Sequence record: LR597663
Source of the DNA: Escherichia phage VpaE1_ev78
Reading direction: 5' to 3' (one strand)
DNA length: 64,000 nucleotides
The notes under the pieces were generated by a model that was not told the origin of the DNA, made no database searches, and was given only the letters and a program-made list of their open reading frames with translations. This document shows, piece by piece, positions 1,137 to 8,832 of this stretch (the stretch's first letter is position 1; each line of letters begins with the position of its first letter). Position numbers and translations under genes: made by a program.

Positions 1137-2552
1137 ATGAGCGAATTATTTAAACATGCGCACCTTCATGCAGGTCGAACTGAAAATGGTGCTGTAAACC
1201 ATACTTCATCAATGTCTGCTCTTGTGGACTTTTATAAAGCTGCTGGTTCAAGCCGTAGCAATGTAGAAGTCTTACCAGACCTGTTCTACAAAGCTTTGCG
1301 TGAGGATGTTGATGTTGCAGTTCGTATTTTGCTTCATATGCGAGATGTACGAGAAGGTATGGGTGAGCGTAAAGCCTTCAGAACTGTTTTGCTTCAAGCG
1401 ATTGAAGACAAAGTTTTAGAGCCTGTACAGGTTCTTCGCATTATGGATAAGATTGCAGAACTTGGTCGTTTTGATGACTTCAAAATCTTCGTAGGTACTC
1501 GTTTCGAGACAGATGCCTTCAAACATTTAGAAGCAGCATTACTAGACCCTGCAACAGCAGGTTTGGCAGCCAAGTGGCTACCACGAGTCAAACCACGTCA
1601 TAAGCAGTTTGTAAAACGTTTCTGCAAGTTTGCCAACTTGAGTGAGAAAGAGTACCGCACACTGTTGTCTGCACTATCTGATACAGTTGAGCAAAAAATC
1701 TCTGCTAATGAGTTTGGTAAGATTGACTACAGTAAGATTCCTTCTCTTGCTGCTGCACGTTACCAAAAGCTGTTTAACCGTAAAGATGGAGAGCGTTACA
1801 AAGCTTACATCGAGTCCTTATCAAAGGGTGAGGCTAAGATTAATGCTGGTGCTGTTTACCCATACGATGTGATTAAATCTGTCAAGCATGGTAATGCAGA
1901 TGTTGCTAATGAGCAGTGGAAAGCACTACCAAACTGGATGGCAGAAGGTGAAAACATCTTATGTATGACTGATGTTTCAAGCTCAATGTCTTGGGTGAAT
2001 TTTGGCTCCATTACTGCTCTTGATATTGGTGTATCACTTGCCTTGTATGTAGCAGAACGCAATACAGGTTGCTTTAAGGATGAGTTGATGGTTTATTCAA
2101 CAAACCCTCACTTCATCGAACTGAGTGGTGATTTACGAAACCGTCATCGTCAGGTGATGCGACACGTTGAATATGGCTCAACCAACTTACAAGCAGCTTT
2201 TGACCGCATTCTTGAGATAGGTAAGAGAAACAACTTGACTCAGGAAGATATGCCAAGTAAGCTTATCATCTTCTCCGATATGGAGTTCAATCAGGTTGAT
2301 GGAGCTAACGGTCGTACAAACTTTGAAGCAATTCAGAGCAAGTACAAGAAAGCTGGATATGAGATGCCACAACTGGTATTCTGGTACTTAGCAAACCGTA
2401 ATGGTACTTGCGAAGTGTCTGTTAAGGATAACGGTGTAGCAATGGTATCTGGTTTCTCTCCAGCCACTTTAAAAGCTCTGCTTGGTGGTGAGAAGTTTGA
2501 CCCAATCAGCGTAATGCTCAAAGCAGTAATGATTGACCGCTATATCTGGTAA
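1137..2552 (+). CDS. vWA-domain protein with MIDAS motif and N-terminal helical domain (DUF2828-like / Ro60-like architecture)
   Basis: C-terminal half contains DxSxS (TDVSSSM), a conserved Thr (GSTNL) and Asp (FSDMEF) typical of vWA MIDAS; N-terminal 260 aa predicted helical; RBS GAGAAGAGAG upstream. Confidence 0.75.
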   Translation: MSELFKHAHLHAGRTENGAVNHTSSMSALVDFYKAAGSSRSNVEVLPDLFYKALREDVDVAVRILLHMRDVREGMGERKAFRTVLLQAIEDKVLEPVQVLRIMDKIAELGRFDDFKIFVGTRFETDAFKHLEAALLDPATAGLAAKWLPRVKPRHKQFVKRFCKFANLSEKEYRTLLSALSDTVEQKISANEFGKIDYSKIPSLAAARYQKLFNRKDGERYKAYIESLSKGEAKINAGAVYPYDVIKSVKHGNADVANEQWKALPNWMAEGENILCMTDVSSSMSWVNFGSITALDIGVSLALYVAERNTGCFKDELMVYSTNPHFIELSGDLRNRHRQVMRHVEYGSTNLQAAFDRILEIGKRNNLTQEDMPSKLIIFSDMEFNQVDGANGRTNFEAIQSKYKKAGYEMPQLVFWYLANRNGTCEVSVKDNGVAMVSGFSPATLKALLGGEKFDPISVMLKAVMIDRYIW

Positions 2553-2569
2553 AAAGTTTTAAAAAGGGT

Positions 2570-2598
2570 ATTGACAATGTGTTTAATACCCTTTAATA
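2570..2598 (+). promoter_or_regulatory. sigma70-like promoter (TTGACA, 17 nt, TAATAT); -35 sits inside inverted repeat AAGGGTATT / AATACCCTT
   Basis: Hexamers and spacing read directly from sequence. Confidence 0.55.
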
Positions 2599-2661
2599 TG
2601 TTCTACATAGAAACGAAATGAGAGCTTTTCTAAGATACTGAAAAATATTTTAAAAAAGTTC

Positions 2662-2691
2662 TTGACAATCACTAAAAAATAATGTTAAAGT
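2662..2691 (+). promoter_or_regulatory. sigma70-like promoter upstream of tRNA array (TTGACA, 17-18 nt, TTAAAG/TAAAGT)
   Basis: Consensus -35, approximate -10, about 25 nt upstream of first tRNA. Confidence 0.5.
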
Positions 2692-2716
2692 GGTTACATA
2701 GAGTTTGAAAAGTTTA

Positions 2717-2794
2717 TCTCTGTTTAGCTCAGCTTGGTAGAGCGTTCCGTTTGGGGCGGTAAGGCCGGAGGTTCAAGTCCTCCAACAGAGACCA
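2717..2794 (+). tRNA. tRNA-Pro (anticodon TGG)
   Basis: Hand-folded cloverleaf: 7-bp acceptor CTCTGTT/AACAGAG, D-loop AGCTTGGTAG, T-arm GGAGG-TTCAAGT-CCTCC, anticodon loop TTTGGGG, CCA encoded. Confidence 0.7.
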
Positions 2795-2801
2795 AATTAA
2801 T

Positions 2802-2879
2802 GTTCCAGTAGACAAAATGGTAAAGTCACCACTCTTTCAAAGTGGATATCTGAGGGTTCAAATCCCTTCTGGAACGCCA
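2802..2879 (+). tRNA. tRNA-Glu (anticodon TTC)
   Basis: Acceptor GTTCCAG/CTGGAAC, anticodon arm CCACT-CTTTCAA-AGTGG, T-loop TTCAAAT, CCA encoded. Confidence 0.7.
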
Positions 2880-2885
2880 GTTTTG

Positions 2886-2910
2886 ACAGAAGACCAATTG
2901 CAGCAAACTT
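2886..2910 (+). repeat. tRNA-spacer motif ACAGAAGACC-N5-CAGCAA, copy 1; followed about 60 nt later by GGTCTGG
   Basis: Motif recurs at about 3053, 3449 and 3535, partial copy near 6168. Confidence 0.6.
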
Positions 2911-2970
2911 AATCTTATTCATCTGAAGGTAAATCGGACAAAGAAGAGATTTGGTCTGGTCATTAAGAAT

Positions 2971-3047
2971 TGCGGGTATAGAGAAAGGGCGTCTCACATG
3001 TCTCATTAGCATGGTATCGGCAGGTTCGACTCCTGCACCCGCCTCCA
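2971..3047 (+). tRNA. tRNA with CAT anticodon (Met / initiator / Ile-lysidine type undetermined)
   Basis: T-arm GCAGG-TTCGACT-CCTGC, acceptor with 1:72 mismatch, anticodon stem built on palindromic CATG; position 37 appears to be T, which is atypical. Confidence 0.5.
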
Positions 3048-3052
3048 AATTT

Positions 3053-3077
3053 ACAGAAGACCGTTTACAGCAATATT
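3053..3077 (+). repeat. tRNA-spacer motif ACAGAAGACC-N5-CAGCAA, copy 2
   Basis: TTACAGAAGACCGTTTACAGCAA; GGTCTGG about 58 nt downstream. Confidence 0.6.
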
Positions 3078-3131
3078 TATTAAATTTTTAGCGGAAAAAA
3101 TTGAAAGATACGGTCTGGTAACACTAAACAT

Positions 3132-3208
3132 GGTTAGGAAGCACATAAGGTATGTGCGGTCGCCTGTTAAGCGAATGGCACAGGGTTCGAATCCCTGACT
3201 AACCGCCA
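3132..3208 (+). tRNA. tRNA-Asn (anticodon GTT)
   Basis: Acceptor GGTTAGG/ACTAACC, anticodon loop CTGTTAA, T-arm CAGGG-TTCGAAT-CCCTG, CCA encoded. Confidence 0.7.
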
Positions 3209-3217
3209 AATTTAAAT

Positions 3218-3305
3218 GTGTCGTTATCCCGTAGATGGTAGCGGTGGGGACTGTAAATCCCTTGTCATTGAGACTCGGTAGGTTCGACTCCTACACGGCA
3301 CACCA
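3218..3305 (+). tRNA. tRNA-Tyr (anticodon GTA), long variable arm
   Basis: 88 nt; acceptor GTGTCGT/ACGGCAC, anticodon arm GGGGA-CTGTAAA-TCCCT, T-loop TTCGACT. Confidence 0.7.
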
Positions 3306-3310
3306 ATAAA

Positions 3311-3388
3311 GGTTATGTAGTTTAATTTGGTTAAAATACTCCCCTGTCACGGGAGATGATGAGGGTTCAAATCCCTTCGTAACCGCCA
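3311..3388 (+). tRNA. tRNA-Asp (anticodon GTC)
   Basis: Acceptor GGTTATG/CGTAACC, anticodon arm CTCCC-CTGTCAC-GGGAG, T-loop TTCAAAT. Confidence 0.7.
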
Positions 3389-3448
3389 ATTTTGAGAGGG
3401 CTATTTAGCCCCTCCCTTAAAGAGTTCTTACGAGTATTCTTTAAAGGA

Positions 3449-3472
3449 GCAGAAGACCAAATACAGCAAGTT
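3449..3472 (+). repeat. tRNA-spacer motif, copy 3 (GCAGAAGACCAAATACAGCAA)
   Basis: Same motif family; GGTCTGG about 67 nt downstream. Confidence 0.55.
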
Positions 3473-3534
3473 ATTTAAAATTTCAAGCCAATTTAATTTT
3501 GAAAAATTTAAAACTTGGTCTGGCTCAACAAATT

Positions 3535-3560
3535 TACAGAAGACCGTTTACAGCAAAACT
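3535..3560 (+). repeat. tRNA-spacer motif, copy 4 (TTACAGAAGACCGTTTACAGCAA)
   Basis: Identical core to copy 2. Confidence 0.6.
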
Positions 3561-3591
3561 TAACAATCTATTTCTCCGGTAAAGAAAAGGC

Positions 3592-3626
3592 GAAGGTTCG
3601 ATTCCTTCACTCGGCAGATGTCGAGT
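3592..3626 (+). ncRNA. tRNA-like minihelix: canonical T-arm (GAAGG-TTCGATT-CCTTC) directly followed by a 7-bp acceptor-like hairpin (ACTCGGC-AGAT-GTCGAGT); no D or anticodon arm found
   Basis: T-loop consensus present but no complementary 5-prime acceptor strand within 120 nt upstream; complementary strand lies immediately downstream. Confidence 0.4.
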
Positions 3627-3668
3627 TGGTGTAATGGTAGTACTTAAGATGATAAACAACGGTCTGGT

Positions 3669-3688
3669 AATTATCTTTGTAGATAAGT
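3669..3688 (+). repeat. hairpin element TTATCT-TTGT-AGATAA preceded by GGTCTGG
   Basis: Second copy with inverted loop (TTATCT-ACAA-AGATAA) at about 3795-3810; the two flank roughly 105 nt. Confidence 0.55.
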
Positions 3689-3792
3689 TATTAAGCTTAC
3701 CTGTGAGTATGCGACCACAAAGGGTGAAAGGGTAAATTCTAGATTTAAACCCAAAAAGGCACATCGCTACAGACCTTAAGCAAGTCTGGGTA

Positions 3793-3812
3793 GCTTATCT
3801 ACAAAGATAATT
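3793..3812 (+). repeat. hairpin element TTATCT-ACAA-AGATAA, second copy, preceded by GTCTGGG
   Basis: Reverse complement of the copy at 3669-3688. Confidence 0.55.
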
Positions 3813-3816
3813 TAAT

Positions 3817-3892
3817 GGAAGTGTAGCAGAATGGTGATGCGGCAGACTTTTAATCTGACAGGCGATGGGTTCGAATCCCTCCACTTCTACCA
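3817..3892 (+). tRNA. tRNA-Lys (anticodon TTT)
   Basis: Acceptor GGAAGTG/CACTTCT, anticodon loop CTTTTAA, T-loop TTCGAAT; two outer T-stem mismatches. Confidence 0.6.
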
Positions 3893-3896
3893 ATAT

Positions 3897-3973
3897 GGTT
3901 CAGTCGCAGATAAGGTAATGCAAGGGTCTCATAAGCCCTATGAATGTGGGTTCGATTCCCATCTGAACCTCCA
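3897..3973 (+). tRNA. tRNA-Met (anticodon CAT)
   Basis: Acceptor GGTTCAG/CTGAACC, anticodon arm AGGGT-CTCATAA-GCCCT, T-loop TTCGATT, CCA encoded. Confidence 0.65.
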
Positions 3974-3974
3974 A

Positions 3975-4050
3975 GCTGGTATAGTTAAGAAGGTTATAAC
4001 ACTCCCCTGATAAGGGAACATCGGTGGTTCGATTCCACCTACCAGTACCA
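3975..4050 (+). tRNA. tRNA-Ile (anticodon GAT)
   Basis: Acceptor GCTGGTA/TACCAGT, anticodon loop CTGATAA, T-arm GGTGG-TTCGATT-CCACC. Confidence 0.65.
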
Positions 4051-4065
4051 ATTTCAATAAAGTTG

Positions 4066-4094
4066 TTGACATTGAGATGTGACTACTTTATAGT
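4066..4094 (+). promoter_or_regulatory. sigma70-like promoter (TTGACA, 17 nt, TATAGT)
   Basis: Near-consensus hexamers with 17-nt spacer inside the tRNA array. Confidence 0.6.
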
Positions 4095-4298
4095 AACCTT
4101 AGTTTTCGTTGCGTAGCGTCTATTTTGCAAATTTAAAATAAATGCAAACGACAATGTTTTTCTGGCAGTAGCTTGATAGGCTAAACACCAGTGAGGTCTT
4201 CCAATCCCTCATCAAAGAATTTGGCGTACTCGCCCACGGTATGATTAATAAGGTGGGCATCTTTAAGGGCTTTCTAAGAGAGTCTTTAAAGATAATTA

Positions 4299-4380
4299 CG
4301 GGGCGTATCTCAGCGGTCTTCTAAACCGCCGTTAACCGAGTAAGTGGAGTATGCGGGTTCGAGTCCTGCCGCCTCGACCA
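4299..4380 (+). tRNA. atypical tRNA-like gene (82 nt): acceptor and T-arm canonical, anticodon-like hairpin with loop CTTCTAA (TCT, Arg-like), no recognisable D-arm, 23-nt extra region
   Basis: Acceptor CGGGGCG/CGCCTCG, T-arm GCGGG-TTCGAGT-CCTGC, CCA encoded; the only strong internal hairpin is GCGGT-CTTCTAA-ACCGC right after positions 8-9. Confidence 0.45.
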
Positions 4381-4394
4381 ATTTTGGAGAAATC

Positions 4395-4742
4395 ATGAAA
4401 ACTTGTATTAGGTGCAAACTTAGCAAGGATGAAAATGATTTCTACATGAAAGATGGTAGGAGAACTCATTCATACTGTAAAAAGTGTGTTAATGAGCAAA
4501 CCATAGAAAGACAAAGAGCACTTAAACTCTCAGCTATTGAGTACAAAGGTGGGGTTTGTCACGATTGTGGTAAAAAGTATCATCCAGCAGTGTATGACTT
4601 CCATCATTTGAATCCTTCAGAGAAAGATTTTAACATTGGTCATAGGAAAAGCCTTAAGTTCTCTCAAGAACTAAAAGATGAACTTGACAAATGTGTTTTG
4701 CTATGTTCAAATTGCCATAGGGTAAGACATGCAAAGTATTAG
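4395..4742 (+). CDS. HNH homing endonuclease
   Basis: Motif DFHHLNPSEKDF...CVLLCSNCHRVRH; ORF-track start lies inside the upstream tRNA, so trimmed to ATG at 4395 (RBS GGAGA). Confidence 0.8.
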   Translation: MKTCIRCKLSKDENDFYMKDGRRTHSYCKKCVNEQTIERQRALKLSAIEYKGGVCHDCGKKYHPAVYDFHHLNPSEKDFNIGHRKSLKFSQELKDELDKCVLLCSNCHRVRHAKY

Positions 4743-4885
4743 TTAGCAGATTACTTAGACGACCTAAGCGGGTCTTCCTGTAGGGAGGTGGTCTGTATCT
4801 CATGTTTTCCAGAACATGTAAATAATCTGAGAAGAAGCTTGACAGTGTTGAGATAACAGGGTAAGCTTCGAATTATAGTTTTAAT

Positions 4886-4956
4886 AGGGGTGAGCTATGG
4901 CAGCAATAGAGTCTCCAAAATTCTTGATTAGAGTTCGAATCTCTACACCCCTGCCA
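4886..4956 (+). tRNA. tRNA-Trp (anticodon CCA), short with reduced D-arm
   Basis: Acceptor AGGGGTG/CACCCCT, anticodon arm AGAGT-CTCCAAA-ATTCT, T-arm TAGAG-TTCGAAT-CTCTA; about 71 nt. Confidence 0.55.
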
Positions 4957-4970
4957 GAACAGGTGCTTGT

Positions 4971-5375
4971 ATGAAACTTTGTAGAAAATGTTCTCAAGAA
5001 AAGCCTTTAAGCTGCTTTCATAAAAGAGGTAATGGCTATCAGTCTGCTTGCAAAGATTGTAAAGCTAAGTACTCAGCAAAGAGATACAAAGAAGACCCTA
5101 CTTATAAAGCAAAAAGAAAAGTTAGGGCAAAATATGACAAAAAGAGGAACAGAGAGTTCCTTAGTAGATATAAAAAGTTTTGCAAATGCAGAATATGTGG
5201 CGAATCTGAGCCAGTAGCTTTGGATTTTCATCACTTAGACCCTAAAGAGAAAGATTTTGCTCCAAGCAATCTTAAAACTTACTCTAGGGGCACTATTAAG
5301 CGTGAAGTCCGTAAGTGTGTTGTGCTTTGTTCAAACTGTCATAGGAAAGTTCATGAAGGACTGTTAAGTATTTAA
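4971..5375 (+). CDS. HNH homing endonuclease (paralogue of 4395..4742)
   Basis: Motif DFHHLDPKEKDF...CVVLCSNCHRKVH; RBS AGGTG. Confidence 0.8.
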   Translation: MKLCRKCSQEKPLSCFHKRGNGYQSACKDCKAKYSAKRYKEDPTYKAKRKVRAKYDKKRNREFLSRYKKFCKCRICGESEPVALDFHHLDPKEKDFAPSNLKTYSRGTIKREVRKCVVLCSNCHRKVHEGLLSI

Positions 5376-5388
5376 CAGTCTTATTAGG

Positions 5389-5476
5389 GGTAGGTAGCGG
5401 CTAATGGTAGCCAAACTGTCTTGAAAACAGTTGCCACTGTAGAGATACGGTGAGGGTTCGACTCCTTTACTTACCG
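5389..5476 (+). tRNA. tRNA-Ser (anticodon TGA), long variable arm
   Basis: Acceptor GGTAGGT/ACTTACC, anticodon arm ACTGT-CTTGAAA-ACAGT, T-loop TTCGACT; CCA not encoded. Confidence 0.65.
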
Positions 5477-5633
5477 CCTAATAAGATTTAAAGCCAAGCT
5501 TCATTCGGATGTTGCTTTGGTATCCCGCGTGTATTGTTGTACACACTGATAAAGCACCTAGTAGGTGTCACGGAGAAGAGATAATATCAAGCTCTCCAAA
5601 GGTTCTAGTCACCGGATTAAACAAGACTATGCA

Positions 5634-5654
5634 AAGACCTTTTTAGGTCTTTTT
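5634..5654 (+). terminator. possible intrinsic terminator or processing hairpin (AAGACC-TTTTTA-GGTCTT plus TTTT)
   Basis: Short hairpin followed by T-run inside the tRNA array. Confidence 0.3.
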
Positions 5655-5733
5655 AGAGGGCTTCTAAGGTTATTACAGCTTGTTGTGGAACCTTGTTGCT
5701 TAGGTTCTTAGAAGTTCTCTAAAAAGATTTAAT

Positions 5734-5811
5734 GGGAGATTGACGGTAATTGGTAAACCTATCTCGCTTAGAACGAGATGTTTGAGGGTTCGAATCCCTT
5801 GTCTCCTACCA
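5734..5811 (+). tRNA. tRNA with TAG anticodon (nominally Leu) but type-I short variable arm
   Basis: Acceptor GGGAGAT/GTCTCCT, anticodon arm TCTCG-CTTAGAA-CGAGA, T-arm GAGGG-TTCGAAT-CCCTT; variable region about 5 nt. Confidence 0.55.
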
Positions 5812-5818
5812 AATTAAT

Positions 5819-5894
5819 GCAGGTGTAGCAAAATGGTTATGCGGCTGACTCTTAATCAGTAAGACGATGGGTTCAATTCCCTCCACCTGTACCA
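5819..5894 (+). tRNA. tRNA-Lys (anticodon CTT)
   Basis: Acceptor GCAGGTG/CACCTGT, anticodon loop CTCTTAA, T-loop TTCAATT; similar to the 3817 tRNA. Confidence 0.6.
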
Positions 5895-5899
5895 AAAAT

Positions 5900-5975
5900 G
5901 GGGTCATAGTTTATATGGTTAAAATTCGAGTTTTGCAAACTTGGGAACTGAGTTCAATTCTCAGTGACTCCACCA
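5900..5975 (+). tRNA. tRNA-Ala (anticodon TGC)
   Basis: Acceptor GGGGTCA/TGACTCC, anticodon arm CGAGT-TTTGCAA-ACTTG, T-arm CTGAG-TTCAATT-CTCAG. Confidence 0.65.
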
Positions 5976-5981
5976 ATTAGT

Positions 5982-6056
5982 GCATCCATAGTTTAAACGG
6001 GAAAATTACAGTCTTCCAAACTGAGGTTGAGGGTTCGATTCCCTCTGGATGCTCCA
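5982..6056 (+). tRNA. tRNA-Gly (anticodon TCC)
   Basis: Acceptor GCATCCA/TGGATGC, anticodon loop CTTCCAA, T-arm GAGGG-TTCGATT-CCCTC. Confidence 0.65.
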
Positions 6057-6063
6057 AATTAAT

Positions 6064-6139
6064 GCTCCTATCGTATAATTGGCTATTACGGTTGCCTTGT
6101 AAGTAACTTATCAGGGTTCGAATCCTTGTGGGAGCACCA
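6064..6139 (+). tRNA. tRNA-Thr (anticodon TGT)
   Basis: Acceptor GCTCCTA/TGGGAGC, anticodon arm GTTGC-CTTGTAA-GTAAC, T-loop TTCGAAT. Confidence 0.65.
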
Positions 6140-6236
6140 ATTTAGAGGTCAAGTGAAAGACCGCTTTGAGTCAACTGAAGACCGTAACAAATTCCACGGA
6201 GTTGAGTTAGCGGCACAACTCCAGACCTCTTCTCAC

Positions 6237-6311
6237 ACTCGCTTAGTTTATATGGTAAAACACCACCCTTACAAGATGAAGAAAAAGGTTCAAGTCCTTT
6301 AGTGAGTACCA
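6237..6311 (+). tRNA. tRNA, probably Val (anticodon TAC); weak anticodon stem
   Basis: Acceptor ACTCGCT/AGTGAGT, T-arm AAAGG-TTCAAGT-CCTTT, anticodon loop CTTACAA with two stem mismatches. Confidence 0.45.
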
Positions 6312-6312
6312 T

Positions 6313-6390
6313 GTTCCAGTATCCCAATTGGCAGAGGATGCAAGCTCAAACCTTGTACTAGTGATGGTTCGAATCCATCTTGGAACACCA
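6313..6390 (+). tRNA. tRNA with CAA anticodon (nominally Leu) but type-I short variable arm
   Basis: Acceptor GTTCCAG/TTGGAAC, anticodon arm GCAAG-CTCAAAC-CTTGT, T-arm GATGG-TTCGAAT-CCATC. Confidence 0.5.
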
Positions 6391-6395
6391 ATTTT

Positions 6396-6471
6396 GCAGG
6401 ATTAGTTCAAATGGATAGAGCAACAGTCTACGAAGCTGTTAATAGGGGTTCAAATCCCTTATCCTGCGCCA
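6396..6471 (+). tRNA. tRNA-Arg (anticodon ACG)
   Basis: Acceptor GCAGGAT/ATCCTGC, anticodon arm ACAGT-CTACGAA-GCTGT, T-loop TTCAAAT. Confidence 0.65.
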
Positions 6472-6490
6472 ATTTAAAGAGGCTATTTAG

Positions 6491-7048
6491 ATGAGATATT
6501 TGAAGTATGCTTCATGGATTTTCTTAGCTTTGTTAGAACCATTTGCAGCAATCTTAGCAGTTATCTTAGCACCTTTTGTAGTTCCATTCTACAGTGAGAA
6601 GAAAGGACACTTACCTTTCGGGTTCAGATGGATGGAGACATATGACAACCCAATTGATGGTGATGAAGGTCACGTTAAAAGATGGGCTAATATTAGATGG
6701 ATTGGTAAACTAGGTGTCTACATGCAAAGAGTCGGATGGCTCTGGAGAAACAAAGCTTATAACTTCTCTTACCATGTGTTAGGAAGAGATGTAAAAGATG
6801 TTACTAAGTGGAAAGGTAATATCAACGTAAGTTCTAACCCTGAAGATAATCAGACAGGTTATCTCCTAATGTGGAACAGTAATGCTTGGGGATTATTCGC
6901 TTTTACCCCATCAATTAAAATCTTTGGTAAACAGTTTTACTGGAGAATTTATATTGGGTGGAAGCTAAAAAGTGTTGTCCCAGAAGAAAGAGCATTCTCA
7001 AGGGAAAGAGTTATGTTGGCATTCTTTATTCATCCACTAAGAAAGTAA
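6491..7048 (+). CDS. Trp-rich membrane protein of unknown function (185 aa) inside the tRNA array
   Basis: RBS AAAGAGG; hydrophobic N-terminal segment WIFLALLEPFAAILAVILAPFVVPF; many Trp residues. Confidence 0.65.
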   Translation: MRYLKYASWIFLALLEPFAAILAVILAPFVVPFYSEKKGHLPFGFRWMETYDNPIDGDEGHVKRWANIRWIGKLGVYMQRVGWLWRNKAYNFSYHVLGRDVKDVTKWKGNINVSSNPEDNQTGYLLMWNSNAWGLFAFTPSIKIFGKQFYWRIYIGWKLKSVVPEERAFSRERVMLAFFIHPLRK

Positions 7049-7056
7049 AGATTTAA

Positions 7057-7132
7057 AGGGGATTAGTTTACAAGGTTAAAACCTCGGTCTTTGAAATCGA
7101 AGAAGTTGGTTCAATTCCAACATCCCCCGCCA
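7057..7132 (+). tRNA. tRNA-Gln (anticodon TTG)
   Basis: Acceptor AGGGGAT/ATCCCCC with 1:72 mismatch, anticodon loop CTTTGAA, T-arm GTTGG-TTCAATT-CCAAC. Confidence 0.6.
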
Positions 7133-7134
7133 AT

Positions 7135-7213
7135 GCTCCATTACTCCAATTGGCAGAGAGGCCAGACTTAAAATCTGTGTTATGTATCGGTTCGAATCCG
7201 ATATGGAGTACCA
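7135..7213 (+). tRNA. tRNA with TAA anticodon (nominally Leu) but type-I variable arm (about 7 nt)
   Basis: Acceptor GCTCCAT/ATGGAGT, anticodon loop CTTAAAA, T-arm ATCGG-TTCGAAT-CCGAT. Confidence 0.5.
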
Positions 7214-7218
7214 AATTT

Positions 7219-7294
7219 AGCGGTATAGCATAACTGGCAATGCAGCAGCCTCTGAAGCTGTCCTATTAAGGTTCAAATCCTTATGCCGCTGCCA
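7219..7294 (+). tRNA. tRNA-Gln (anticodon CTG)
   Basis: Acceptor AGCGGTA/TGCCGCT, anticodon arm GCAGC-CTCTGAA-GCTGT, T-arm TAAGG-TTCAAAT-CCTTA. Confidence 0.6.
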
Positions 7295-7325
7295 CTTCTA
7301 AGGATTCTTACGAGAGTCCTTAAAT

Positions 7326-7401
7326 GTGGCCTTATCATAAATGGTAATGACCCATGCTGTGAACATGGTCTATACGGGTTCAAATCCCGTAGGTCACCCC
7401 A
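7326..7401 (+). tRNA. tRNA-His (anticodon GTG)
   Basis: Acceptor GTGGCCT/AGGTCAC, perfect anticodon arm CCATG-CTGTGAA-CATGG, T-arm ACGGG-TTCAAAT-CCCGT. Confidence 0.7.
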
Positions 7402-7406
7402 ATTTA

Positions 7407-7481
7407 TAGTCCAAGTAGCTTATATGGTTAAAGCGCGTGTCTGAAAAACATGAGAAGAGGGTTCAAATCCCACTGGACTAC
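7407..7481 (+). tRNA. tRNA-Phe (anticodon GAA)
   Basis: Acceptor TAGTCCA/TGGACTA, anticodon arm CGTGT-CTGAAAA-ACATG, T-loop TTCAAAT; CCA not fully encoded. Confidence 0.6.
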
Positions 7482-7499
7482 CAATTTCAAAGGTGCTTA

Positions 7500-8234
7500 A
7501 TGAAAGAGATGACAGAACAAGGTAAGGAGATTTTTAATCTCTTAAAAACCGGTAAAGGGTTCTCTAACCCACTTATTACTGGTGCAGCAGTTCTCGGTGG
7601 AACCGTAGCTGCTTCTACATCACTTGTAAGCTCTATTAGTTCTGTAACAGACCCTACAATGAAGGAGAAACTTGTTGCTGCTGGACTTACAACAGTCCTT
7701 CTAAACAGCTTTACAACAAGCCTTACAAGCACTACAGCAACTACTAAAACTCTGACAGACTACGGTCAAAAGTCTATTGATGAGTTTTCATCACGTATGC
7801 AGGTAGCAAAGGGGTATTCCAATGTTATGGGTGCAGCAGGAGAACAAGTTGGTTGTACACCATTCAGTGGTATCATGGGTGTTGCTACAGAGTATGGTCA
7901 AAAAGCTATTGACATGATGAACAGTACACTAGATAGTGTTAATGGTGTGTTAAGTGACTTGCAAGATGCTATTGATAAGGGTCTTGATACTGTTTCTGAT
8001 TTAGCTAATCAGGCTGTTAGTAAGATTAATGAAGGTATTTCAAAGATTACAGCTTATGCAGATGAAGTTGTGCAGATGATTGAAGAAGAAGCTGCCCTTA
8101 TTGCAGAGTACCTTAAAACGAATATCAATGGGTTCTTAGCAGGTATCTTACCAGACTGGTTTGATGATGCCTGTAAAACTGGTGTGATTGACACTATTGC
8201 AACACCAGAAATGAAGAGCGCATTACAGAAATAA
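7500..8234 (+). CDS. hypothetical Ser/Thr/Ala-rich protein (244 aa) inside the tRNA array
   Basis: ORF-track start overlaps tRNA-Phe; trimmed to in-frame ATG at 7500; low-complexity T/S/A/G-rich middle. Confidence 0.5.
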   Translation: MKEMTEQGKEIFNLLKTGKGFSNPLITGAAVLGGTVAASTSLVSSISSVTDPTMKEKLVAAGLTTVLLNSFTTSLTSTTATTKTLTDYGQKSIDEFSSRMQVAKGYSNVMGAAGEQVGCTPFSGIMGVATEYGQKAIDMMNSTLDSVNGVLSDLQDAIDKGLDTVSDLANQAVSKINEGISKITAYADEVVQMIEEEAALIAEYLKTNINGFLAGILPDWFDDACKTGVIDTIATPEMKSALQK

Positions 8235-8236
8235 AT

Positions 8237-8329
8237 GGAAGATTAACCCTAAAAGGTAAGGGAGCAGTTTGCTAAACTGCCAGTAGCTGAGAAATCGGTG
8301 TACCAGTTCAAGTCTGGTATCTTCCTCCA
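8237..8329 (+). tRNA. tRNA-Ser (anticodon GCT), long variable arm
   Basis: 93 nt; acceptor GGAAGAT/ATCTTCC, anticodon arm GCAGT-TTGCTAA-ACTGC, T-arm ACCAG-TTCAAGT-CTGGT; starts 3 nt after upstream stop. Confidence 0.7.
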
Positions 8330-8333
8330 ATTT

Positions 8334-8409
8334 GAATCCGTGACAGAAATGGCTATGTGCCTGTCTGCAAAACAGGTTTATAAGGGTTCGAGTCCCTTCG
8401 GATTCTCCA
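8334..8409 (+). tRNA. tRNA-Cys (anticodon GCA)
   Basis: Acceptor GAATCCG/CGGATTC, anticodon arm CCTGT-CTGCAAA-ACAGG, T-arm AAGGG-TTCGAGT-CCCTT. Confidence 0.7.
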
Positions 8410-8446
8410 AGTTATTTTACTCTCTCTCAATTAAAATAATAATAAT

Positions 8447-8516
8447 GCCCTGCTATAAGTATTCTTCCTTTCGCTACCGAAGAGTATTTTTAGACAGGGC
8501 TTTTTTACAGAGTTAT
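8447..8516 (+). terminator. intrinsic terminator closing the tRNA array (long imperfect hairpin GCCCTG...CAGGGC plus TTTTTT)
   Basis: Stem arms with internal sub-stem, followed by six T. Confidence 0.55.
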
Positions 8517-8571
8517 ACTTTATAAGAAGGCTTATACAGTATGTCTCTGACGTACATTGTGGTTTCTCCTT

Positions 8572-8595
8572 GACGGTCTCTGTGCCGTCTTTTTT
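8572..8595 (+). terminator. intrinsic terminator (GACGG-TCTCTGTG-CCGTC plus TTTTTT)
   Basis: GC-rich 5-bp stem and T-run immediately upstream of structural module. Confidence 0.6.
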
Positions 8596-8631
8596 AAGGA
8601 GAAACATGGTTAATTATTTGGAGAAAACATA

Positions 8632-8832
8632 ATGAGTGAGACCGTTTATAAAGAACTTTATGAAGCTAATAAGAAGCTAGAATTTATGCAGAATACTATC
8701 ATGGCAATTGCAGACAGATTGTCTGTAGCAACAGGTATTGATATTAAAGAAGCATCTATGGATGCACTTCTTGATGCTGTTGATGCAAAGTTCGAAGTTA
8801 AGAAAGAAGAGACTGCTACAGACTCTGAATAA
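8632..8832 (+). CDS. hypothetical small acidic protein (66 aa), possible terminase-associated
   Basis: RBS GGAG; directly upstream of terminase large subunit; assignment positional only. Confidence 0.45.
   Translation: MSETVYKELYEANKKLEFMQNTIMAIADRLSVATGIDIKEASMDALLDAVDAKFEVKKEETATDSE

Follow-up and report, generated by a model that had tools for sequence, protein, structure and literature searches.

The leucine identity of E. coli tRNAs lies in A73, the A15-U48 pair, G18G19, A20a and the contacts G18:U55, G19:C56 and U54:A58 (Giege & Eriani 2023, PMC9976931), with A14 as a further determinant (Fan 2019, PMC6614811). Leucylation is uncorrelated with the sequence or the folding of the long variable arm that marks type II tRNAs, and armless variants stay active (PMC9976931). 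As summarised in that review, engineered E. coli tRNALeu lacking the arm is aminoacylated by E. coli LeuRS as long as neither A73 nor the D/T-loop tertiary contacts are disturbed, the constructs being those of Larkin et al. 2002, Asahara et al. 1998 and Tocchini-Valentini et al. 2000. In A. aeolicus, removal of the arm leads to lower affinity.

Natural tRNALeu with a short variable region (type I) is found in animal mitochondria–for example, human mt-tRNALeu(UUR)–where identity consists of A73 and A14, with no long arm (PMC9976931). The only characterised bacterial case is tRNALeu(CAA) of S. coelicolor, which is of bacterial type, has an ACAG(U/C)-like variable loop of 5 nt, and was published as the one, rare, bacterial exception (PMC6614811). 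In vitro, E. coli LeuRS was unable to leucylate this natural tRNA, and the enzyme was described as charging type II only (Fan et al. 2019, PMC6614811); this is the only such test of E. coli LeuRS. In phages, the tRNA-Leu genes of T4 (87 nt) and T5 (85 nt) are type II, and by full-text literature searches we found no description of type I tRNA-Leu.

We analysed a window of 64,000 nucleotides from Escherichia phage VpaE1_ev78 (LR597663), a Felixounavirus (Felix O1-like phage), in which a preliminary description had pointed to three tRNA-Leu genes with short variable arms. We consider it probable (about 0.78) that these are functional phage genes of a type I tRNA-Leu class, leucylated by the LeuRS of the host. 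The features discussed below are:

2718..8409, + strand: tRNA array of 26 genes called by ARAGORN, all on this strand (ARAGORN, Rfam)
3218-3305, + strand: tRNA-Tyr, 88 nt, type II control (ARAGORN)
5389-5478, + strand: tRNA-Ser(UGA), 90 nt, type II control (ARAGORN)
5734..5811, + strand: tRNA-Leu(UAG), type I (ARAGORN, Rfam 44.5 bits, segmentation, compensatory pairs)
6313..6390, + strand: tRNA-Leu(CAA), type I (ARAGORN, Rfam 43.8 bits, side by side with E. coli leuX, compensatory pairs)
7135..7213, + strand: tRNA-Leu(UAA), type I (ARAGORN, Rfam 47.5 bits, segmentation, compensatory pairs)
8237-8329, + strand: tRNA-Ser(GCU), 93 nt, type II control (ARAGORN)

Three tRNA-Leu genes with short variable regions

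ARAGORN called the three Leu genes with the same coordinates and anticodons as the preliminary description (tag, caa and taa in its notation), at lengths of 78, 78 and 79 nt for Leu(UAG), Leu(CAA) and Leu(UAA). CCA is encoded in all three, leaving bodies of 75, 75 and 76 nt. Their matches to Rfam RF00005 are full-length (model positions 1-71) and score above the gathering threshold of 29 bits, with at most 4 inserted bases within the variable region. The variable loops, delimited by hand segmentation and ARAGORN brackets, are UGUUU at 5779-5783 in Leu(UAG), ACUAGU at 6357-6362 in Leu(CAA) and GUUAUGU at 7179-7185 in Leu(UAA), so they are 5, 6 and 7 nt long, and none contains a helix. None of the genes has the variable region of 10 nt or more, forming an extra stem-loop, that defines class II; each combines a Leu anticodon (5769-5771, 6347-6349 and 7169-7171, respectively) with a variable loop no longer than 8 nt, our definition of type I tRNA-Leu. 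The range of 5-7 nt reported earlier thus stands by ARAGORN, Rfam and hand segmentation, and the doubt voiced with it, that the anticodon loops might be misregistered, can be set aside: ARAGORN and Rfam agree on the registration, and automated folding assigns the same anticodons and finds no long arm in the three genes. Both tRNA-Ser genes and the tRNA-Tyr gene of the same array retain their extra hairpin, so that long arms, where present in this array, do not escape the tools.

Leu(CAA) has a D arm of Leu type, with a 3-bp stem (UCC/GGA) and an 11-nt loop CAAUUGGCAGA. Host leuX is like Leu(CAA) and Leu(UAA) in this arrangement (3-bp stem and 11-nt loop, N-A-A-Y-Y-G-G-Y-A-G-A), whereas its variable region is 13 nt long. 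The D loop of Leu(UAA) is identical to that of Leu(CAA), which is also its nearest relative inside the array (identity 0.67); Leu(UAA) is a paralogue of Leu(CAA). Leu(UAG) is the atypical member of the three. Its D stem is of 4 bp (CGGU/ACCU), its D loop is the 9-nt AAUUGGUAA, and its nearest relatives outside the array are other type I Leu genes. The idea that Leu(UAG) was remolded from another isoacceptor found no support and was rejected: within the array it comes closest to Asp (0.60) and Glu (0.59), and neither value reaches the 95th percentile of all pairs (0.62). The irregularities that we counted against the genes are a 3-nt connector (UGA) in Leu(UAG), where other tRNAs have 2 nt, together with a C.U at 10:25 in its D stem, and a mismatch in Leu(UAA), C27.U43.

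Short-arm Leu genes are kept in three genera of Ounavirinae, in about 290 records, and Leu(CAA) has at least 95% identity in 240 phage records. Segmenting the cloverleaf gene by gene, we found 19 or 20 of the 20 stem pairs to be standard in each window gene. Between genera, many pairs are changed on both sides and still paired: 7 of 20 in Leu(CAA) and 13 of 20 in Leu(UAA), each compared with its orthologue in Erwinia phage phiEa21-4, and 13 of 20 in Leu(UAG) compared with Leu(UAG) of Citrobacter phage Michonne. These counts replace column counts on a MAFFT alignment of the Ounavirinae Leu genes, which we dropped because rows with extra bases were shifted. As judged from sequence comparison, the predicted cloverleaf of the three Leu genes is more than chance.

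Type I tRNA-Leu in viral and bacterial genomes

To count type I and type II genes in viral arrays independently of Leu, we anchored the samples on tRNA-Arg(UCU) and tRNA-Met(CAU). Type I made up 25 of the 109 Leu genes found in this way (23%), which bears out the earlier statement that most phage tRNA-Leu are type II (about 77% in this unbiased sample). The short-arm architecture is therefore that of a common minority class of phage tRNA-Leu and not peculiar to this phage. Loss of the arm is a Leu-specific feature: the ratio of type I to type II was 25:84 for Leu, 1:63 for Ser and 2:32 for Tyr. Against the published rarity of the Streptomyces type, roughly a quarter of the sampled phage tRNA-Leu are type I, including all three of a large, well-studied group of E. 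coli/Salmonella phages. Scans of IMG/VR anchored on the Leu anticodon loop and the T loop GGTTCGAATCC had given an estimate of more type I than type II genes; we discarded it as an artefact, since 20% of the type I Leu genes have this T loop, as against only 6% of the type II.

The class is coherent. Of 328 viral type I Leu genes, 87% have A73, 87% have U48 and 75% have A14A15, against 53%, 38% and 37% of other type I tRNAs. Once the anticodon was masked, a Leu model trained on type II genes alone was the best-scoring one for 62% of the type I Leu bodies. Its core signature comprises A9, C12-G23 and C13, where type II has G9, G12-C23 and G13, together with a GGCAGAG D loop and an ACAGU-like variable loop. 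Leu(CAA) and Leu(UAA) of the window have A9, C12, C13 and GGCAGAG, and their variable loops depart from ACAGU; in Leu(UAG) the D-arm part of the signature is absent.

In bacterial genomes, 32 of the 104 matches were short, mostly single genes in Actinomycetota. The actinobacterial chromosomal type I genes have the D arm U8-A9-GCC-CAAYYGGCAGA-GGC in common with the phage genes, and from U8 to U48 the Michonne Leu(UAG) differs from a gene of an Actinomycetaceae genome (L477) at only about 3 of 45 positions. The actinobacterial genes are chromosomal and single-copy, in high-GC hosts whose LeuRS has a specialised leucine-specific domain, whereas the window genes are phage-borne, diverge from ACAGU in their variable loops of 5-7 nt, and are obliged to work with an enterobacterial LeuRS. 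Host tRNAs at prophage edges were considered as a general source of the viral genes and rejected, because most viral type I Leu genes sit in tRNA arrays (271 of 342, counting three or more tRNAs within 2 kb as an array) and the median GC content of their loci is 41%. No type I Leu of this family was found in 5,426 E. coli genomes, prophages included.

These distributions bear on a reading that is compatible with charging by host LeuRS, namely that arm loss was adaptive. Phage tRNAs without the arm would escape host factors that read the class II long arm, whether anti-phage toxins that modify or cleave tRNAs or mis-serylation by SerRS, and decoding of leucine would survive in defended cells. 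A widespread phage class with its own core signature fits this idea, as do the co-occurrence of both Leu types in 9 of 67 Leu-carrying viral loci and the absence of the family from the E. coli genomes. We nevertheless regard it as doubtful: in the same phages the Ser and Tyr tRNAs still have long arms that would leave them exposed, and the Leu-only pattern is accounted for just as well by neutral arm loss under deletion bias. To our knowledge, no such defence system targets tRNA-Leu in Enterobacteria, which also counts against adaptation. A broader scenario, which we offer as speculation and hold to be improbable, would make type I tRNA-Leu a single, horizontally spreading, phage-borne lineage that was also the source of the type I tRNALeu on the chromosomes of Actinomycetota, that of S. 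coelicolor among them, with arm loss selected as immunity to class II-recognising factors (AbiE/MenT-type toxins, SerRS mischarging) and with enterobacterial LeuRS routinely charging type I tRNAs in Felix O1-type infections.

Leucine identity and charging by the host

All three window genes have A73 directly before the encoded CCA, and contain the bases of U8/A14, A15:U48, G18G19, A20a, U54:A58, U55 and C56; these core determinants were scored as presence of the bases, from which the tertiary pairs are predicted. The last base of the variable loop is U in each gene, and the T loop is UUCGAAU. E. coli leuX and leuZ, T4, and T5 tRNA-Leu(UAG) are like the window genes in having Leu anticodons, A73, U8/A14, A15:U48, G18G19, A20a and a UUCGA T loop, and these type II tRNAs presumably share with them the same enzyme, host LeuRS. 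Since the full E. coli LeuRS set is present, and the long arm does not belong to it, the most likely outcome appears to be that host LeuRS leucylates these tRNAs in the ordinary way; the suggestion in the preliminary description that identity or charging could be unusual draws no support from the sequence. The 3:70 pair is G-C in Leu(UAG) and U-A in Leu(CAA) and Leu(UAA), and the identity elements of AlaRS (G3:U70) and SerRS (a long variable arm) are absent from the three genes. An Ala or Ser identity is unlikely on this evidence. Animal mitochondrial tRNALeu, although type I too, has a mitochondrial LeuRS of its own and a relaxed structure rich in mismatches; in the phage genes the stems are stable, and G18G19 and the T-loop elements keep their canonical form.

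A LeuRS is absent from the phage: we found no aminoacyl-tRNA synthetase among the large ORFs of the window, where the sole ORF of 800 or more amino acids encodes a family A DNA polymerase, nor in the remaining 23 kb of a near-identical genome. The Leu codon usage of the phage matches the three anticodons: in the ORFs of the window, UUA accounts for 26.7% of Leu codons, UUG for 13.4% and CUA for 10.9%, with CUG at no more than 15.6%.

On our reading, transcription of the array during infection would yield three tRNA-Leu already bearing CCA, to which the LeuRS of the host (E. coli or Salmonella) would add leucine. Leu(UAA) would decode UUA and UUG, Leu(CAA) would decode UUG, and Leu(UAG) would decode CUA and neighbouring CUN codons–codons that this phage of 39% GC uses frequently and that the host pool serves poorly. 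[quoted passage not shown] If host LeuRS does charge the three tRNAs, they would be evidence from nature that an enterobacterial LeuRS can do without the long arm, ready-made compact tRNALeu scaffolds for synthetic biology, and a handle on why cells keep the arm and phages often drop it. They would also be natural counterparts, under selection, of the engineered armless tRNALeu, which are laboratory constructs.

Quite unlikely, in our judgement, is that these tRNAs are bad substrates of host LeuRS, or none, and would depend on a phage factor or a specific modification or have a non-translational role (as decoy, primer or regulator). This is favoured by the inability of E. coli LeuRS to charge the Streptomyces type I tRNALeu(CAA) in vitro (PMC6614811) and by an uncharacterised DUF2828/DUF7788 protein, annotated as RNA-binding, that is encoded directly upstream of the array. 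However, the Streptomyces result may not carry over to the phage tRNAs, because the Streptomyces tRNA has C48 where the window genes have U48, and the full E. coli identity set, including this U48, is present in the phage genes. Poor charging would also sit badly with the activity of armless E. coli tRNALeu variants (PMC9976931), with the fit of the anticodons to phage codon bias, and with purifying selection on all four stems.

Charging with an amino acid other than leucine, which would recode UUR and CUA in phage genes, is far less credible still, even though a type I body is unusual for Leu and Leu is not always first in anticodon-masked isotype profiles: A73 and a Leu-type D loop are present, G3:U70, the long arm and G-1 are absent, the anticodons UAA, CAA and UAG are unacceptable to anticodon-reading synthetases under established identity rules, and these codons make up 51% of the Leu codons in conserved proteins such as ribonucleotide reductase and DNA polymerase. 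In those profiles Leu ranked first for Leu(UAG) (25.7 against 23.1 bits) and Leu(UAA) (33.7 against 31.3), by small margins, and third for Leu(CAA) (Tyr 21.5, Leu 18.0), which makes the profile test a weak one for the window genes, informative as it is for the class.

The notion that the genes are an artefact–a misregistered cloverleaf, or decaying pseudogenes with part of the arm lost–can draw on the labels pseudo or tRNA-OTHER that neighbouring genes carry in some records, but it is already contradicted by the data and has next to no chance of being right, given the same structure from two programs, the nearly complete standard pairing, conservation across about 290 genomes, compensatory substitutions between genera, and the same architecture in 228 sequence clusters of viral tRNA-Leu, in which 96.8% of cells are paired. 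For annotation, type I tRNA-Leu genes of phages should not be classed as pseudogenes or isotype conflicts. Single-sequence MFE folding recovered the cloverleaf for Leu(UAG) alone, and the z-scores were unremarkable, as is usual for tRNAs.

Three tRNA-Leu genes without a long variable arm

The window belongs to a Felixounavirus (a myovirus of the Felix O1 type that infects E. coli and Salmonella). Its region 5300-8500 finds matches in 293 phage records, and shares 99.7% identity with Escherichia phage VpaE1_ev108. ARAGORN finds an array of 26 tRNA genes, all on the + strand, at 2718-8409. The preliminary description reported three genes in it with Leu anticodons and short (type I) variable arms, and ARAGORN places them at identical coordinates:

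5734-5811, + strand, tRNA-Leu(tag): ARAGORN; Rfam tRNA model 44.5 bits; variable loop UGUUU
6313-6390, + strand, tRNA-Leu(caa): ARAGORN; Rfam tRNA model 43.8 bits; variable loop ACUAGU
7135-7213, + strand, tRNA-Leu(taa): ARAGORN; Rfam tRNA model 47.5 bits; variable loop GUUAUGU

All three exceed the gathering score of the Rfam tRNA model (29 bits), and the Rfam alignments insert no more than four bases into the variable region. The short arms are thus borne out by ARAGORN, by Rfam and by cloverleaf segmentation, from which the variable loops were read off. The suspected error in anticodon-loop registration is dispelled; ARAGORN gives the same anticodons. CCA is encoded in each, so the mature bodies are 75-76 nt long. 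Long-arm controls are present in the same array: two tRNA-Ser genes (90 and 93 nt) and a tRNA-Tyr (88 nt) retain a clear extra hairpin. Leu(CAA) and Leu(UAA) are reciprocally closest relatives within the array; Leu(UAG) is irregular, with a 3-nt connector, a 4-bp D stem containing C.U, and a 9-nt D loop.

Annotation of these genes as tRNA-Leu goes back to the Felix O1 genome, and records of Felix O1, Citrobacter phage Michonne (Mooglevirus) and Erwinia phage phiEa21-4 (Kolesnikvirus) list Leu genes of 77-79 nt. Leu(CAA) is at least 95% identical across 240 records. In comparisons of the window genes with counterparts from other genera, stem pairs that changed on both sides yet remain paired number 7 of 20 for CAA and 13 of 20 for both UAA and UAG, with the D loop CAAUUGGCAGA unchanged. 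At the position of Leu(UAG), Michonne has a different type I Leu(UAG) that is more canonical than the window's.

Type I tRNA-Leu in phages and Actinomycetota

The tRNA-Leu genes of T4 (87 nt) and T5 (85 nt) are type II, unlike the three in the window, and they underlie the expectation in the preliminary description that phage tRNA-Leu are mostly type II. Initial IMG/VR scans, anchored on a GGTTCGAATCC T loop together with a Leu anticodon loop, gave more type I than type II genes; we rejected this result as sampling bias, because type I Leu have the anchor T loop about three times as often. When viral tRNA arrays were instead sampled independently of Leu, the ratio of type I to type II was 10:35 with tRNA-Arg(UCU) as anchor and 15:49 with tRNA-Met(CAU). 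Pooled, the unique viral Leu genes comprise 25 of type I and 84 of type II (23% type I), so the expectation holds: most, 84 of 109 genes, are type II. The type I share is the same in large arrays, and 19 of the 67 Leu-carrying viral loci have at least one type I gene. In the same samples the ratios for Ser and Tyr are 1:63 and 2:32, and in a larger set the contrast between Leu and Ser-plus-Tyr gives a Fisher p of ~1e-60. Type I is a common minority of phage tRNA-Leu, and loss of the arm is specific to Leu.

These genes form a coherent class. We found 328 unique viral type I Leu genes, in 228 clusters at 80% identity; the consensus of 120 representatives (MAFFT and RNAalifold) forms a cloverleaf of four arms that has a D stem of 3 bp and lacks an extra arm, with 96.8% of cells paired and at least three pair types at 18 of its 20 pairs. 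A73, U48 and A14A15 occur in 87%, 87% and 75% of viral type I Leu, values near those of type II Leu (93%, 96% and 90%) and well away from those of other type I tRNAs (53%, 38% and 37%). In an isotype test with the anticodon masked, the variable region removed and the Leu profile trained on type II genes only, that profile scored best for 62% of type I Leu, at an overall held-out accuracy of 71%. The class signature is A9, C12-G23, C13, a GGCAGAG D loop and an ACAGU-like variable loop, whereas G9, G12-C23 and G13 are found in type II Leu, and AGGUC in ordinary type I tRNAs. Its D-arm part is present in the window's CAA and UAA genes and absent from UAG.

Hundreds of cultured phages carry ungapped relatives annotated simply as tRNA-Leu; their hosts are Mycobacterium, Streptomyces, Rhodococcus, Gordonia, Klebsiella, Enterobacter, Pseudomonas, Vibrio, Enterococcus, Lactobacillus and Synechococcus, and a crAss-like phage has a relative too. 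Across 5,426 complete E. coli genomes we found no relative. Many Actinomycetota carry a single chromosomal type I tRNALeu(UAA) with the same signature (loci L475-L585, e.g. L475, L477, L493, L506, L509, L539), in Nonomuraea, Nocardia, Microbacterium, Leucobacter, Kibdelosporangium and Bifidobacteriaceae MAGs. It has the form GCCCCCGUAGCCCAAYYGGCAGAGGC...NCAGU, and shares a core with the phage class; 27 of the 32 cases have no other tRNA within 8 kb. In Actinomycetota, type I tRNALeu therefore extends far beyond the one published Streptomyces case. In a full-text literature search, the phrase 'type I tRNALeu' appeared only in a Streptomyces paper, and no paper remarked that type I is frequent among phage tRNA-Leu. 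The class, which is under-recognised, lends itself to a clean experimental test.

Probable charging by the host enzyme and loss of the arm

The determinants of E. coli LeuRS are A73, the A15:U48 Levitt pair, G18G19, A20a and D/T-loop tertiary pairs; leucylation is uncorrelated with the sequence or folding of the long arm, and tRNALeu variants lacking the long arm and the anticodon arm are still active (Giege & Eriani 2023, PMC9976931). A14 is a further determinant (Fan et al. 2019, PMC6614811). Each of the three phage genes has all of these bases, and CAA and UAA share the D-arm architecture of the host's leuX (3-bp stem, 11-nt loop). The segmented sequences contain neither G3:U70 nor any feature usable by SerRS. 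We found no phage-encoded synthetase: the sole window ORF of at least 800 aa encodes a family A DNA polymerase, and no synthetase-like gene lies in the other 23 kb of the near-identical genome. Leu codon shares in 52 window ORFs are UUA 26.7%, CUU 28.2%, UUG 13.4%, CUA 10.9% and CUG 15.6%; in E. coli, CUG makes up about half of Leu codons and CUA about 4%. The three anticodons are therefore in keeping with the usual supplementing of the host tRNA pool.

The unusual identity or charging suggested in the preliminary description is thus not favored: the genes are most likely ordinary working tRNA-Leu charged by host LeuRS (probability about 0.8), and their function is probably ordinary. An enterobacterial LeuRS is here predicted to charge type I tRNALeu. 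The single bacterial type I tRNALeu published so far, S. coelicolor tRNALeu(CAA), is not leucylated by the E. coli enzyme, which is described as charging type II only; its variable loop is A44-C45-A46-G47-C48 (Fan et al. 2019, PMC6614811). The phage genes differ at position 48, where all three have U48 as the A15:U48 determinant requires, a difference that could plausibly keep the negative S. coelicolor result from extending to them. In the A. aeolicus system, removal of the arm lowered affinity.

Arm loss confined to Leu is what would be expected if LeuRS, unlike SerRS and bacterial TyrRS, can do without the arm, and the most economical reading is that the loss was neutral or economising, LeuRS permitting. 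An adaptive origin, in which type I Leu evade host factors that recognise class II tRNAs via the arm, seems improbable to us. According to a 2026 preprint, class II tRNAs are probably preferred by the abortive-infection toxin AbiEii, as by MenT3.

Possible gene turnover and other irregular tRNAs in the array

Among Ounavirinae, HNH endonuclease genes and small ORFs break the tRNA array at differing sites (loci L001-L003, compared to 4395-4880 and 6484-7047 in the window). Felix O1 has three HNH genes in its array; Michonne has one, directly abutting Leu(UAG), whose sequence differs from that of Felix O1. Content also varies: Arg(UCU) is present or replaced, and Tyr is absent in Michonne. Together these differences suggest that individual tRNA genes turn over, driven by homing endonucleases. 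Directly upstream of the array, ORF 1137-2552 (+) matches DUF2828, DUF7788 and, weakly, VWA, and is annotated 'RNA-binding protein' in Felix O1; from its position, a role with tRNAs or tRNA-like RNAs is possible. Several other genes are irregular:

4299-4380, + strand, tRNA-like gene: Rfam 31.7 bits; missed by ARAGORN
4886-4956, + strand, tRNA-Trp(CCA): 71 nt; Rfam 33.2 bits searched alone, filtered out in a larger scan
5389-5478, + strand, tRNA-Ser(UGA): 33.2 bits, the lowest tRNA score in the first Rfam array scan
2971-3047, + strand, tRNA-Met(CAU): ARAGORN; absent from the Rfam gathering-threshold list for 2500-8700
3218-3305, + strand, tRNA-Tyr(GUA): ARAGORN; absent from the same list

The tRNA-like gene, followed by an endonuclease-like ORF beginning at 4395, combines a 7-bp acceptor stem, A73 and encoded CCA with a normal T arm and an anticodon arm carrying UCU (Arg); it has only 6 nt in place of the D arm and a 23-nt variable region containing a small hairpin. 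Its GC content is 59% (39% for the genome). It is kept, mostly unannotated, in about 200 Felixounavirus records, and the sister phages VpaE1, UAB_Phi87 and Michonne have a normal tRNA-Arg in its place; the gene may be either a remnant or a tRNA-Arg lacking the D arm. In the tRNA-Trp the D arm is degenerate (the Rfam alignment leaves three D-stem positions unpaired and has a 3-nt deletion), and T5 tRNA-Trp is also 71 nt. The ARAGORN call for tRNA-Ser(UGA) ends in GCC, whereas nearly all its neighbours have CCA, and its phiEa21-4 counterpart is annotated as a possible pseudogene. The Tyr gene carries a pseudogene flag in the Felix O1 RefSeq record.
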